From Escherichia phage EC.P1, in the sequence record PQ657772.1: 64,000 nucleotides of DNA, one strand, 5' to 3'. Of this stretch, positions 54,780 to 63,500 are shown in pieces (position 1 is the first letter of the stretch; every line of letters begins with the position of its first letter). A program made the translations under genes and the position numbers. A model generated the notes under the pieces. It was not told the DNA's origin. It saw only the letters and a list, made by a program, of their open reading frames with translations, and ran no database searches.

Positions 54780-54807
54780 ATAATATACGATTCATATAAA
54801 AAGTCAA
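54780..54807 (-). promoter_or_regulatory. sigma70-type promoter (TTGACT-16-TATTAT) heading the family B array
   Basis: Read on minus strand 30-60 nt upstream of ATG at 54749. Confidence 0.5.
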
Positions 54808-54998
54808 TAACATTTTATAAGTAATACCCCTTTATCGAAGTCGCTAAGGTTACCCGCCCTTTAGCCCCCTACGCATTTTGCCATAGTCCAATCCCTTTTT
54901 ATTCATAAAAGTCAAGGGATTACCTATGCATTTTTTTAACGCTGAAGTTTAAAAATGCCTTGACTTTTTTATGATTCAGTACTAAATCCTTTTACGCA

Positions 54999-55208
54999 TT
55001 AATCCTTCGTTACGCTTACGATTATCTGTGTATCCCCATAGTCCTGCCATACTTCCACGCCAGCCGTCGCCCTGGTTAGTCGTGCTGTCATCTGCTTAAT
55101 GGTCTTAGGCTTTAGTGGAACCTGTTGCAGTACTGTACGCATAGCACCATCGACGTTATCATGTACGCCTGCAATAGTGCCTAGAACGTTGTATACTGTA
55201 TAGATCAT
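54999..55208 (-). CDS. hypothetical protein
   Basis: Track ORF 69 aa; AGGAG RBS; no own promoter seen. Confidence 0.55.
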   Translation of the reverse strand: MIYTVYNVLGTIAGVHDNVDGAMRTVLQQVPLKPKTIKQMTARLTRATAGVEVWQDYGDTQIIVSVTKD

Positions 55209-55232
55209 GTGTATGTACTCCTGATATAGTTA

Positions 55233-55252
55233 AGGCCGCTAGAGAGCGGCCT
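55233..55252 (-). promoter_or_regulatory. intercistronic GC hairpin (AGGCCGC-loop-GCGGCCT)
   Basis: Perfect 7-bp inverted repeat between 55277..55678 and 54999..55208; not followed by a U-run. Confidence 0.4.
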
Positions 55253-55276
55253 ATGATGTTTGATGATGTGTAACGC

Positions 55277-55678
55277 TTACAACCCTAAGATAGTGCGTGC
55301 TTCGTTACGTTCCGTACACAGCTGCATGATGTGAGCAAGTAAGTCCTTGCTAATGTATCCGGTGTTCATAGCTTCACGAATAGATACATCATAAGCACCG
55401 AACCCAGTGCGAACGATACGCACATCATTCAGGTTAGTATTATAGATACCGCCGAGATCAACGGCTTCGAATACTACATCAACAGAATATTCATTGTTGC
55501 CATCGTGGAAGTTTTCCAGTGCAATAGTATTGGAAACCGCCCAACGTTTGCAGTTTCCAATGATGCGGCACTGTTCCGGTTGGATAGTGCCATTACTTAC
55601 AGCGTACTCCAGTGCATCTTTACCAAAAGTCCGAGCCAGTACTAAAACGTCAGCGAAGGAAGTGATTGAGAAGGTCAT
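55277..55678 (-). CDS. hypothetical protein
   Basis: Start trimmed from track 55741 to ATG at 55678 (MTFSITSF); track N-terminus is a translation of the promoter/hairpin. Confidence 0.55.
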   Translation of the reverse strand: MTFSITSFADVLVLARTFGKDALEYAVSNGTIQPEQCRIIGNCKRWAVSNTIALENFHDGNNEYSVDVVFEAVDLGGIYNTNLNDVRIVRTGFGAYDVSIREAMNTGYISKDLLAHIMQLCTERNEARTILGL

Positions 55679-55697
55679 GATAAAACTCCTTAATTTA

Positions 55698-55760
55698 GGA
55701 GGGAGAACCATTTCCCCCTCTCTATGTAAAACATTATACATGAATCTAAGTACTATGCAA
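55698..55760 (-). promoter_or_regulatory. promoter (TTGCAT-16-TATAAT) plus 5'-UTR hairpin
   Basis: Minus-strand read; hairpin GAGGGGGAA-AUGG-UUCUCCCUC needs a G-U pair possible only on the minus transcript. Confidence 0.6.
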
Positions 55761-55767
55761 GTACTTT

Positions 55768-56100
55768 TTACATTTTGATACCTGGATTCAGGTAGCGGTG
55801 AGATCCATATTCTGGATCGGTTTCGGTCCAGTACTGTAAATCTATAGTACCTTTAGCGTTAATCTTATCTACCAGCTTATTCATCTTAGCGTATACTACA
55901 TCAGCATCGATGCGTTTAAAGCCAGTGGCTTTAGTGAAGTAGTAGTGATTTGCTTCACTATCATTCAGGATGTACCGAGAACCGTTTGCCGTTTGTGCGA
56001 TAATGATTGAGTATTCTACGTTACGGTCGAGGCCGTCGATGAATACAGAGGAAACATTAGTACGGATGAAAGCTTTAACGATAGCGATTGAAGTAGTCAT
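55768..56100 (-). CDS. hypothetical protein
   Basis: Track ORF 110 aa; AGGAG RBS. Confidence 0.6.
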   Translation of the reverse strand: MTTSIAIVKAFIRTNVSSVFIDGLDRNVEYSIIIAQTANGSRYILNDSEANHYYFTKATGFKRIDADVVYAKMNKLVDKINAKGTIDLQYWTETDPEYGSHRYLNPGIKM

Positions 56101-56118
56101 TTTGAATCTCCTAACTTT

Positions 56119-56182
56119 GTGGGCCGTCGCACCATTGCCGCCCTACGAGATACATTATCGCAGTACTGATATACTTTGTCAA
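56119..56182 (-). promoter_or_regulatory. promoter (TTGACA-17-GATAAT) plus imperfect GC-rich 5'-UTR hairpin
   Basis: Minus-strand read upstream of 55768..56100. Confidence 0.55.
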
Positions 56183-56250
56183 TACTTTTTTTATTAATAG
56201 TTTTAGTTCCACCAGCAGATAGTTACTCACCGTTATTAACTATATATTTT

Positions 56251-56338
56251 GGATACACCTATGCACCCTGTGGGCTAGTTTTTGTCTATGCGTATATAAT
56301 AGCAAAGGGACTGACCGGAGTCAATCCCTTTTTTTATT
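56251..56338 (-). repeat. conserved intergenic element copy 1 with terminator-like hairpin (56304..56331)
   Basis: About 85 bp shared with 59007..59096 and 62019..62100; 12-bp stem with one G-U pair on minus transcript, UCCG loop. Confidence 0.6.
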
Positions 56339-56346
56339 CTTTTTTG

Positions 56347-56547
56347 TTAGATGATTCTCCAATCATCAACGATCATGGTAAGATACCGAACCAGTGATTC
56401 GAGTGATTCGTGTTCTCGATAGTCTGCCGCTCCACCAGCGGTACAAGTACAGCCGATTAAGCCGTTTTGTAGTTCCTGGATCTTTACGTCGATCTGGTTG
56501 GCTTTAGCTTCTTTCAGTACTTCAACCAGGGCGATAGCGATAGACAT
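56347..56547 (-). CDS. hypothetical protein
   Basis: Track ORF 66 aa; GGAG RBS. Confidence 0.55.
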   Translation of the reverse strand: MSIAIALVEVLKEAKANQIDVKIQELQNGLIGCTCTAGGAADYREHESLESLVRYLTMIVDDWRII

Positions 56548-56568
56548 AATGTTTTACTCCAAACTATT

Positions 56569-56630
56569 GGCGGGAGAACTATTCCCCCGCTCTATGTAAA
56601 ACATTATACATTACTGGTTAGTACTGTCAA
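56569..56630 (-). promoter_or_regulatory. promoter (TTGACA-16-TATAAT) plus 5'-UTR hairpin
   Basis: Hairpin GCGGGGGAA-UAG-UUCUCCCGC with G-U pair on minus transcript. Confidence 0.6.
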
Positions 56631-62100: not shown

Positions 62101-62109
62101 CAATTATTT

Positions 62110-62259
62110 TTAAACTTCTTTCGGGTTGCGATATGTGATAGCGTTCGGGTACATTTGTTTAATGTTATTCCATGCCTGGTTAACATTATAACCACTTGAT
62201 CGAATCAGTTGGTTATTACCGACACCTTGAAACACTACTTCAAATAAGAATTCTTTCAT
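62110..62259 (-). CDS. hypothetical small protein (49 aa)
   Basis: Hand-translated MKEFLFEVVFQGVGNNQLIRSSGYNVNQAWNNIKQMYPNAITYRNPKEV; GAGGTG RBS; ATGA coupling. Confidence 0.45.
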   Translation of the reverse strand: MKEFLFEVVFQGVGNNQLIRSSGYNVNQAWNNIKQMYPNAITYRNPKEV

Positions 62260-62429
62260 GCTTTCACCTCGCTATCTGCTTTGCCTTTACGCCAGGCCGT
62301 TGCTAATTGTTCGCGTTGCCATAAGTCGAGTGATACGTAAAGTTTTGCATTATCACCCTTCGGATATTCGCCAGTAGTACCAATCCGATAAAACAGATCT
62401 TTCAGTACTGTTAATTCTACCTGGACCAT
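62256..62429 (-). CDS. hypothetical small protein (57 aa)
   Basis: Start trimmed to MVQVELTVLKD (track start 62531 translates the hairpin). Confidence 0.5.
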   Translation of the reverse strand: MVQVELTVLKDLFYRIGTTGEYPKGDNAKLYVSLDLWQREQLATAWRKGKADSEVKA

Positions 62430-62450
62430 TATACTTTCCTCTTTGTTAGG

Positions 62451-62508
62451 AGGGGAACTATTCCCCTTCCGATATAAAACATTATACACTTTATTCAGTA
62501 CTGTGCAA
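62451..62508 (-). promoter_or_regulatory. promoter (TTGCAC-16-TATAAT) plus 5'-UTR hairpin
   Basis: Minus-strand read upstream of 62256..62429. Confidence 0.55.
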
Positions 62509-62515
62509 GTACTTT

Positions 62516-62728
62516 TTAATCTTTCAGCCAATGATCCTGAATGAATTTTTCACCGGAACCGTGCTGCATTGATTGTAACAGACGTTCGCGATGAGCGGCG
62601 GCGAATTGCTCAGTACTATGCGTTACACCTGGTTGATATCTGGATTCACCATTTGGGGCGATGTATTGTACATCCCACGGTTTTTCGTTAGTATCAGACC
62701 ATTTACGAACGATTAGTTGACCTTGCAT
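62516..62728 (-). CDS. hypothetical protein
   Basis: Track ORF 70 aa. Confidence 0.6.
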   Translation of the reverse strand: MQGQLIVRKWSDTNEKPWDVQYIAPNGESRYQPGVTHSTEQFAAAHRERLLQSMQHGSGEKFIQDHWLKD

Positions 62729-62745
62729 TTTTCTTTCCTCTTAGT

Positions 62746-62805
62746 GGGGAGAATCATTTCTCCCCTTCATGTAAACTATTATACAGTACTATAATCTATT
62801 GTCCA
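62746..62805 (-). promoter_or_regulatory. promoter (TGGACA-16-TATAAT) plus 5'-UTR hairpin
   Basis: Minus-strand read upstream of 62516..62728. Confidence 0.55.
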
Positions 62806-62813
62806 GTACTTTT

Positions 62814-63002
62814 TTACAGTTTATGAATTAATTCTTTATCTAAGCGATAGCGTACATTATTAATGGTAACAGCATTATTTTTAATGCTACGCTGTACGGG
62901 TCCACCAGCAATAACAAACGTTGCTTTATTGCCCCGAACAATGATAGCACTTCCAGGATTACCGAAATCATCTTGTACTAAAATACTTGATAAGTTTTCC
63001 AT
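62814..63002 (-). CDS. hypothetical protein
   Basis: Track ORF 62 aa. Confidence 0.55.
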   Translation of the reverse strand: MENLSSILVQDDFGNPGSAIIVRGNKATFVIAGGPVQRSIKNNAVTINNVRYRLDKELIHKL

Positions 63003-63020
63003 TTTTATTTCCTCTTAGTA

Positions 63021-63077
63021 GGGGAAGATGTTTCCCCTTGATGCAAGTACTATAACAGTACTGAAAACTAAATGCAA
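63021..63077 (-). promoter_or_regulatory. promoter (TTGCAT-17-TATAGT) plus 5'-UTR hairpin
   Basis: Minus-strand read upstream of 62814..63002. Confidence 0.5.
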
Positions 63078-63080
63078 GTA

Positions 63081-63437
63081 CTATGATAAAATCATGATAG
63101 GATATTCACTATCGATCAGTACCTCGAATCCGAAACCTTCGTACCATTCTTTAAGATTAAAGGCGTTATCTTCTCCCGTATCGCATTCTAAGATGATACA
63201 ATCTGAATCATCGGCGGCATCAATAAAGGCATTCATTAATTCGTTACCTTCACCATTGCCCCGACTATCAGGATCAACATAAAGAGAATCAATAAACGCT
63301 ACACGGTCATAATCAAGATCCGGTGCAATGATTCCACGTTTAACAAACCAGTACTGCAATTGTGCTACTTTGCCCTGTACCTGATAACCAGTGATCTCGC
63401 CATTGTCAGTAGTACGCGTGATATGTTGTATTCCCAT
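63081..63437 (-). CDS. small GNAT-like acetyltransferase (putative)
   Basis: Motif-A-like VDPDSRGNGEGNELMNAFIDAA; short for a complete GNAT fold. Confidence 0.4.
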   Translation of the reverse strand: MGIQHITRTTDNGEITGYQVQGKVAQLQYWFVKRGIIAPDLDYDRVAFIDSLYVDPDSRGNGEGNELMNAFIDAADDSDCIILECDTGEDNAFNLKEWYEGFGFEVLIDSEYPIMILS

Positions 63438-63466
63438 GATTACTATCCTCAGTTAAGATATAAAAC

Positions 63467-63494
63467 ATTATACACTATCTTTCAGTACTGTCAA
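63467..63494 (-). promoter_or_regulatory. promoter (TTGACA-16-TATAAT), no hairpin
   Basis: Minus-strand read upstream of 63081..63437. Confidence 0.55.
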
Positions 63495-63500
63495 TACTTT

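Follow-up and report, generated by a model that had tools for sequence, protein, structure and literature searches.

Promoter, hairpin and ribosome-site cassettes in the terminal repeat of Escherichia phage EC.P1, with a possible role of the hairpin in the mRNA leader

Stem-loops close to the 5' end that stabilize the transcript are known from the ompA and papA leaders and from the leaders of T7 gene 10 and T4 gene 32. Promoter-early stem-loops (PeSLs) have been described in the T4-like phages RB49/phi1, PST/T4 and nt-1/KVP40, where they are clustered in plastic regions and mediate insertions and deletions (indels), each unit joining a strong sigma70 promoter with an AT-rich tract to a stem-loop of the G-run/C-run type, a Shine-Dalgarno (SD) sequence and a start codon (PMC2839356, PMC4122927). 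PeSL cassettes are also described as forming excised mini-circles. In one subclass listed in the PeSL paper, the stem-loop comes after the -10 element. Here, we describe cassettes of similar build in a 64,000-nt stretch of Escherichia phage EC.P1 (PQ657772.1; the window in the following), located at 55.7 to 63.1 kb within the predicted terminal repeat. Their arrangement suggests that the repeat is an array of portable units of strong host promoter, RNA hairpin and ribosome site. We read them, with middling confidence, as PeSL-type early cassettes of the genus Asteriusvirus whose hairpin most likely is a leader element acting at the RNA level.

Cassette array in the terminal repeat

The window matches Asteriusvirus (Rak2-like) jumbo coliphages at 90–97% identity. 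In vB_Ec-M-J, the match covers positions 13045–21593, with an annotated direct terminal repeat at 1–21525 (21,525 bp), and in fEgEco12 positions 14066–21060, with a terminal repeat of 20,993 bp whose ends have been confirmed by restriction digests. Judging from these two annotated repeats, the inner repeat boundary should lie at about position 54,855 of the window, giving the following context.

54855..64000, minus strand: right-hand, inner portion (~9 kb) of a direct terminal repeat of ~21 kb, which continues past the end of the window

All genes between 54.8 and 63.8 kb, about 24 small ones, lie on the minus strand. On the repeat side of the boundary, genes are separated by about 85 nt and have one promoter each, whereas beyond ~54,855 they overlap by 4 nt in an operon-like fashion and lack promoters of their own. 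The original prediction had placed the block at 54780–63500; the block is real, but its lower end is slightly off, as the promoter at 54807–54780 is without a hairpin and falls a little beyond the repeat. That the block is an early-gene region is a reasonable inference from the related phage PA5oct, in which transcription at 5 min is highest for the genes of the terminal repeat, and infection depends on host RNA polymerase and is sensitive to rifampicin (PMC7318152), making early expression by the host enzyme plausible also here. In the literature searched, neither a transcription-start map for the genus Asteriusvirus nor, among publications on Asteriusvirus, RaK2, 121Q, PBECO4 and phAPEC6, a description of these cassettes was found.

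The cassette is a unit of about 85 bp comprising, in this order, an A-tract, a near-consensus sigma70 promoter, a CAT trinucleotide, a stem-loop, an SD sequence and ATG. Twelve copies carry a canonical hairpin and two a divergent one (all minus strand; promoters given as -35 element, spacer length and -10 element, hairpins as 5' arm/3' arm):

63000..63077, minus strand: cassette 1; TTGCAT-17-TATAGT, -10 at 63054; hairpin AGGGGAA/TTCCCCT (about 63016–63042); SD AAGAGG; ATG 63002
62726..62805, minus strand: cassette 2; TGGACA-16-TATAAT, -10 at 62783; hairpin GGGGAGAA/TTCTCCCC (62746–62765); ATG 62728
62427..62508, minus strand: cassette 3; TTGCAC-16-TATAAT, -10 at 62486; hairpin (A)GGGGAA/TTCCCC(T) (62447–62471); ATG 62429
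61418..61505, minus strand: cassette 4; TTGACA-16-TATAAT, -10 at 61483; hairpin GAGGGGAA/TTCCCCTC (61441–61466); ATG 61420
61148..61234, minus strand: cassette 5, near-identical to cassette 4; TTGACA-16-TATAAT, -10 at 61212; hairpin GAGGGGAA/TTCCCCTC (61171–61195); ATG 61150
58876..58961, minus strand: cassette 6; TTGCAA-16-TATAAT, -10 at 58939; hairpin AGGGGGAA/TTCTCCCT with one G-U (58898–58922); ATG 58878
58570..58652, minus strand: cassette 7; TTGACA-16-TATAAT, -10 at 58630; hairpin GGGGAGAA/TTCTCCCC (58594–58612); ATG 58572
58073..58158, minus strand: cassette 8; TTGACA-16-TATAAT, -10 at 58136; hairpin GGGGAGAA/TTCTCCCC (58100–58118); ATG 58075
57525..57607, minus strand: cassette 9; TTGCAT-16-TATAAT, -10 at 57585; hairpin GAGGGGGAA/TTTCCCCTC (57546–57567); ATG 57527
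57194..57271, minus strand: cassette 10; TTGCAT-16-TATAAT, -10 at 57249; hairpin GGGGGAG/CTCCCCC (57215–57233); ATG 57196
56545..56630, minus strand: cassette 11; TTGACA-16-TATAAT, -10 at 56608; hairpin GCGGGGGAA/TTCTCCCGC with one G-U (56568–56592); ATG 56547
55676..55760, minus strand: cassette 12; TTGCAT-16-TATAAT, -10 at 55738; hairpin GAGGGGGAA/TTCTCCCTC with one G-U (55697–55722); ATG 55678
61894..61961, minus strand: divergent member; TTGCAA-16-TATAAT, -10 at 61939; interrupted hairpin GACGGGGAAC...CCCCGTT
56098..56182, minus strand: divergent member; TTGACA-17-GATAAT, -10 at 56159; weak irregular GGGC...GCCC (z = -0.2); ATG 56100

A sigma70-type promoter-like site of its own precedes about 20 of the 24 block genes, in line with the earlier claim that nearly every small gene has one matching TTGACA or TTGCAT and TATAAT with a 16- or 17-nt spacer; in the cassette promoters the spacer is mostly 16 nt. 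Perfect TTGACA-N16-TATAAT occurs seven times in the window, always on the minus strand and between 56.6 and 63.5 kb, and 11 sites have at most one mismatch to this sequence, compared to 2.25 ± 1.63 in shuffled sequences, none of 100 shuffles reaching 11. The remaining promoters are TTGCAT, TTGCAA or TTGCAC-N16-TATAAT variants, and both these and all perfect 12/12 promoters are preceded by aaaaagta. Besides the 14 promoters listed, seven in the block are without a hairpin.

The canonical hairpins have a G-rich 5' and a C-rich 3' arm, 6–9 bp and folding energies of -10.6 to -16 kcal/mol, and start 10–14 nt after the -10. A conserved CAT, the predicted transcription start, is found 6–8 nt beyond the -10, resulting in predicted leaders of 43–53 nt for the 12 canonical cassettes. 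In 11 of these, the leader folds into a single 5'-proximal hairpin and leaves SD and AUG unpaired. Between the hairpin and the ATG lies an open stretch rich in A that contains AAGAGG, AAGGA or AGGAG. The three stems quoted in the original prediction (GGGGAAA/TTTCCCC, GGGGAGAA/TTCTCCCC and GGGGGAG/CTCCCCC) are all present, and its succession of a G/C stem-loop and a ribosome-binding site holds with the SD region open. Leaders without a hairpin are unstructured and usually 25–30 nt long (one of 46 nt). The distance of the hairpin to the -10 (12.0 ± 2.0 nt) is more tightly kept than that to the ATG (19.7 ± 4.6 nt).

Hairpins of this kind are restricted to the repeat. When promoters were picked without reference to the downstream sequence and the first 36 transcribed nt folded, 14 of 24 block promoters gave -9 kcal/mol or lower, compared to one of 49 in the rest of the window (Fisher p = 7e-8). 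Likewise, all matches with E < 0.2 obtained over the whole 64 kb with a covariance model of the hairpin, filters off, fall within 55.7–63.0 kb, the sole match that is not a leader hairpin being a true terminator at 60288–60312. In related loci, matches of the model are found only in the repeat portion and end at the boundary in every locus extending past it. In Rfam 15, the window has no match at the gathering score, and at a relaxed threshold the region 54–64 kb gives only a chance-level match to rpsL_ricks (E = 3.2); tRNA or tmRNA genes were not found in the window.

Hairpin conservation and recombination at the cassettes

Cassettes extend through the whole repeat of the Escherichia phages fEgEco12 (about 27 copies), vB_Ec-M-J, TH47 and 121Q, and likewise through that of the Salmonella phage Munch, of the Klebsiella phages Muenster, RaK2 and a second Klebsiella phage, and of the Erwinia phage Hallingskeid and a related metagenomic contig. 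CBB and GAP32 have a hairpin of different sequence (ATTAGGGAA/CCTTAATC) at the same place. The Klebsiella stems GGGAATGAA/TTCATTCCC, GGGGATACA/TGTATCCCC and GGAGATTCCA/TGGAATCTCC are unrelated to the Escherichia stem GGGGAGAA/TTCTCCCC, and nevertheless the hairpin onset 10–14 nt after the -10 is kept.

Covariation was counted in an ungapped set (A3) of 31 distinct hairpins with 3-nt loops from five of six scanned loci, duplicates collapsed. Standard pairs make up 90.7% of the cells, a percentage to be read with the choice of these hairpins in mind (see below), compared to 73.8 ± 1.4% after shuffling and at most 67.7% with slid partners. Double-sided changes are present at eight of nine pairs, with 46 compensatory cells versus 13.7 expected, and hence the compensatory stem changes noted before withstand the collapsing of duplicated cassettes. 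The MAFFT alignments of whole cassettes (A1) and of mixed-loop hairpins (A2) were out of structural register and excluded from pair counts, and the alignment derived from the covariance model (A4) was left uncounted because its mixture of sense matches and mirrored antisense matches would inflate the apparent covariation. With stems differing, position kept and eight of nine pairs compensating, the hairpin is under selection as a structure.

Structure alone, however, does not explain the sequence, as the 5' arm is nearly always purine-rich: of 468 Watson-Crick pairs, 406 (87%) have the purine on the 5' side. Among the three pairs at the stem base, G:C occurs 132 times and C:G 9 times, and the two apical pairs are nearly always A-U.

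Recombination between cassettes has brought about gene gain and loss among the relatives. The small-gene region is a mosaic between relatives, and the genes flanking the cassettes are annotated there almost entirely as hypothetical. Compared to fEgEco12 and TH47, indels end at 62814, 61414/61251, 60043/59958, 58901/57619 and 56635/56344, that is, all five in cassettes or promoters, albeit in a small sample, and in three of the five the flanking alignments overlap by 72–107 bp, which fits recombination between repeats. TH47 lacks the gene between cassettes 4 and 5 as well as cassette 11 and its gene, and has a 1.3-kb deletion with ends in cassette 6 and cassette 9. Within the window, the copies with the -10 at 58630 and 58136 and those at 61483 and 61212 are near-identical pairs.

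The RB49 intergenic regions inspected look very similar, for example, aaaaagttgTTGACAGGGGATC..GATCCCCTATAAT...CAT...GGAG..ATG. In the clade itself, the position of the stem-loop varies, since five cases in Munch and one in TH47 have it over the -10 in an RB49-like manner, spanning spacer and -10 (e.g., TTGACAgtactaaGGGAGTATTATATAATACTCCC):

L007 6193, 6416, 8976, 12712 and 19457; L005 (reverse complement) 15652: in-promoter stem-loops, TATAAT/TATACT in the loop or 3' arm

Taken with the PeSL subclass mentioned above and the indel breakpoints, these findings make the resemblance to T4-type cassettes stronger than originally claimed.

Possible roles of the leader hairpin

In the reading we favor, host RNA polymerase would start at the CAT, so that the stem-loop would occupy about +4 to +30 of each cassette mRNA. 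The purine-rich first ~15 nt would then pair with their complement to a stable 5'-proximal hairpin, which would stabilize and insulate each mRNA by slowing decay and holding the ribosome site unpaired whichever open reading frame (ORF) follows. In read-through RNA from an upstream cassette, the same hairpin could act as a barrier to 3' exonucleases. Furthermore, a purine-rich initial transcript would suit escape-limited promoters. The conserved cassette also provides portable homology by which genes are shuffled.

Several points weigh against this leader role. With the predicted CAT start, 3–7 nt are unpaired ahead of the hairpin, and in ompA work from the Belasco laboratory protection from 5'-end-dependent RNase E attack reportedly drops beyond about 2–4 unpaired nt. 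No hairpin follows seven promoters of the block. A stem-loop may also lie inside the promoter, as in relatives and in RB49, and would then be absent from the cassette's own mRNA, which argues for a role in read-through RNA or at the DNA level. The strict G-first polarity exceeds what RNA folding alone accounts for. As the A3 hairpins were picked by inverted-repeat score and thus chosen for pairing, their percentage of paired cells is partly built in; independent support for selection of the hairpin comes from the promoter-first test and the replacement of stems between genera. Also the strand asymmetry of wobble pairs leans only weakly to transcribed-sense RNA. When recounted with an inverted-repeat search scoring all mismatch types equally, the 61 distinct hairpins have five internal G:T mismatches, one A:C and one A:A, and with only 5 versus 1 once G:T is not favored, the asymmetry was dismissed as proof of RNA function. 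The original argument from G-U pairs forming only in the minus-strand transcript is weakened in a similar way: such pairs do exist in three copies (-10 at 58939, 56608 and 55738), but being the same pair at the same stem position in related copies, they count as about one evolutionary event.

The discoverers of PeSLs read the stem-loops as terminators or attenuators insulating genes from upstream transcription. According to Arbiol et al. (PMC2839356), one RB49 PeSL stem-loop placed between promoter and lacZ lowered expression to a degree similar to that seen with rrnB T1, and the stem-loops of Munch and TH47 overlapping the -10 would be complete only in read-through RNA. In addition, one copy in vB_Ec-M-J that has no promoter, GGCGGGGAA tgg TTCCCGCC, has TTTATTG after it. 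In the window, however, none of the 12 hairpins is followed by a T run, the tails being A-rich (ACTAAGAGG, GATACTAAAAGG), and a terminator scan of the transcribed (minus) strand called none of them, whereas it did call a real terminator at 60309–60291:

60288..60312, minus strand: true intrinsic terminator, GGCGGGA tcag TTCCCGCC + TTTTTT, in contrast to the leader hairpins

Without a U-tract, the hairpins are not canonical terminators, and an efficient terminator at +4 to +30 would abort its own mRNA before the ORF. Insulation of this kind is therefore an unlikely function, and termination was rejected as the main role. The hairpin or inverted repeat might instead be the common site of a phage or host factor co-regulating the terminal-repeat regulon, for example, in the shut-off of the earliest genes, in processing or in recombination. 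Dozens of copies that combine GGG(G) at the foot of the 5' arm with (C)CCC at that of the 3' arm and an A-A/U-U apex would fit, as would a polarity far stricter than folding requires, and the PeSL authors had speculated on a GGGG...CCCC-binding protein. On the other hand, loops vary freely (TAG, TGG, ATGG, ACGG, CAC, ACATC, GTAC, GAATAA), stem length is anywhere between 6 and 10 bp, and the inner part of the stem has no sequence in common from genus to genus. Known RNA sites recognized by their loop, and dimeric operators, whose half-sites are a fixed distance apart, do not look like this, and a common site seems improbable. Among specific sites considered, a dimeric DNA operator is disfavored by the variable loop and stem lengths, an RNase III site by stems of 6–10 bp, which are too short, a cleavage site of the T4 RegB type by the lack of GGAG in many stems (GGGGAA, GGGAATGAA), and a CsrA-type site by loops without GGA.

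A related possibility, which we rate as quite unlikely, is a regulon-wide tag, with the hairpin as a common RNA or single-strand DNA handle on some 25–30 repeat transcripts per genome. A phage or host factor could then stabilize, process or silence the immediate-early set in one step, the strict G-first polarity and the conserved A-A/U-U apex would serve recognition instead of being by-products, and the small-RNA-like family interspersed in the repeat (see below) could belong to the same circuit. About the polarity, one may also suppose that the purine-rich initial transcribed sequence is the selected feature, aiding polymerase escape from very strong promoters, while the 3' arm merely neutralizes an SD-like tract. 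The purine bias of the stem pairs and of the outermost three in particular (87%; G:C 132 versus C:G 9) suits this explanation, and there is a precedent in the T5 promoter N25, which is escape-limited, loses output about 10-fold when the initial transcribed sequence is altered and shows a correlation of purine content with productive yield (PMC12464699, PMC5961368). Against it stand hairpin-less block promoters without purine-rich starts, the G-run of RB49-type cassettes in the promoter spacer, where it is untranscribed from that promoter, and compensatory changes indicating that pairing itself is retained; as the sole selected feature, escape thus seems distinctly improbable. Least probable by far is that the hairpins are functionless passengers of a recently duplicated promoter repeat. 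Cassettes have clearly spread by recombination, and the near-identical copies 58630/58136 and 61483/61212 are what such duplication would leave, but 61 distinct hairpins are found in seven loci, pairing survives double-sided changes, and the hairpin persists across genera where flanking proteins are only about 36–40% identical.

As the stem-loop is here part of the mRNA made from its own cassette, the variant is a natural test case for whether PeSL stem-loops act as terminators, RNA stabilizers or DNA sites. Beyond that, Rak2-like jumbo phages are under development for therapy, and about three quarters of their genes are without known function. The cassette array accounts for the mosaic of genes that the repeat shows from one isolate to the next, and the compact conserved module of strong promoter, leader hairpin and ribosome-binding site might serve as an expression part.

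Neighboring features and comparison with known systems

The divergent unit at 61961 would give a transcript of about 90 nt with no ORF before the next consensus promoter (61845). It is a repeated element spanning 61800–61998 (minus strand), with an 88% identical second copy elsewhere in the fEgEco12 and vB_Ec-M-J repeats, and could be a further small RNA or a cassette that has decayed. The small-RNA-like family mentioned above has three copies in the window:

about 62098–61965, minus strand: small-RNA-like element
about 59091–58965, minus strand: small-RNA-like element
about 56331–56190, minus strand: small-RNA-like element

Further copies occur in the loci L001, L004, L005, L006, L007, L010 and L011–L020, with 6–12 per terminal repeat and, near the left end, on both strands. 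Each element has its own sigma70 promoter, TTGAC[AT]-17-[TC]AT[TA]AT, often within a terminator-like hairpin AAAGGGATTGACTCCGGTCAGTCCCTTT, followed by a CAT start and a 3–5 bp hairpin with a purine-rich hexaloop; this 5' hairpin has at least 12 different compensating stems and is missing from two of the three window copies. The near-invariant core is CCC-N3-4-GGGUG(C), with YRYCY 8 nt further on, which can pair with GGGUG in 170 of 175 cells compared to at most 129 when slid. These helices were counted by script, as RNAalifold recovered only the CCC/GGG helix, the 5' hairpin being misaligned by MAFFT. The exact motif matches in IMG/VR only on contigs of 346–378 kb, and the family spans the whole Rak2-like clade. 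It has no match in Rfam; in PA5oct, two highly expressed noncoding RNAs have been reported in the repeat.

Around the predicted repeat boundary, positions 54750–54999 are non-coding. Just outside the repeat lies a tandem gene array:

52818..54749, minus strand: at least nine paralogous genes of 64–90 aa with the common motif GTNYQ and 19–33% identity; most junctions overlap, by 4–44 nt; a single promoter (54807–54780) serves all

Three block genes (59103–59687, 63081–63437 and 63501–63758, minus strand) bear functional names in related records, namely a Ser/Thr protein kinase, a GNAT acetyltransferase and a zinc-finger protein resembling DksA. At 36–41% identity between genera, the kinase is repeat-borne in Klebsiella, Salmonella, Erwinia and Xanthomonas jumbo phages; it recalls the early T7 kinase gp0.7, which modifies host RNA polymerase and RNases. 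The hexamer AGTACT has 217 sites across the window versus 17 ± 4.5 expected (13-fold excess), in coding and intergenic DNA alike, with zero sites in 37.0–46.1 kb and 49.0–54.9 kb. In cassette promoters the hexamer is found repeatedly near -40 and -15, and it is frequent also in Klebsiella and Erwinia relatives.

Like the leaders of the ompA type, the predicted cassette transcripts have a stable hairpin in their initial ~30 nt and, after it, a ribosome site free of structure, and the T7 gene 10 leader hairpin GGGAGACC...GGUUUCCC has a similar G-first composition. They differ in that the classical hairpin begins about 0–4 nt from the 5' end, whereas 3–7 unpaired nt are predicted here, and in that the classical cases are single genes, in contrast to a repeated cassette family with a proposed stabilizing role. 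References on such stem-loops are listed in PMC3997798.

The T5 early and pre-early promoters, N25 among them, resemble the cassettes as very strong promoters of host RNA polymerase with A-rich upstream DNA, TATAAT, a discriminator rich in A/T and an initial transcribed sequence rich in purines, and the T5 pre-early genes also lie in a long terminal repeat. However, T5 promoters are not described as having a conserved complementary 3' arm or a hairpin, and their sequence is not homologous to that of the cassettes. For the Rak2-like phage CBB, RpoD-like promoters have been reported, with UP-like elements, from the early region and the terminal repeat; clade, promoter kind and genome region are the same as here, but the paper describes promoters only and mentions neither a leader hairpin nor cassette-mediated shuffling (PMC5259590).

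Most features are shared with PeSLs: an AT-rich tract, a near-consensus sigma70 promoter, a stem-loop, an SD sequence and a start codon within about 90–100 bp, with the latter two closing the 3' end of the unit; a stable G-run...C-run stem-loop with some G-T pairs (in three of the 12 window hairpins); the G-first polarity common to RB49-type and window cassettes; and the setting in a plastic region of small ORFans. In contrast to the T4-like myoviruses (Straboviridae) hosting the described PeSLs, the cassettes reside in Rak2-like jumbo phages, which the CBB paper groups with T4-likes only via distant portal homology (PMC5259590), and they sit in a direct terminal repeat. Moreover, the stem-loop is upstream of, within or overlapping the promoter in none of the 12 window cassettes, but is in all of them past the predicted CAT start, in agreement with the downstream placement originally noted, and no U-tract follows. 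By their sequence, the cassettes are hence best filed as elements of the PeSL kind from a different phage clade with the stem-loop in the mRNA leader, extending PeSLs beyond the T4-like phages.

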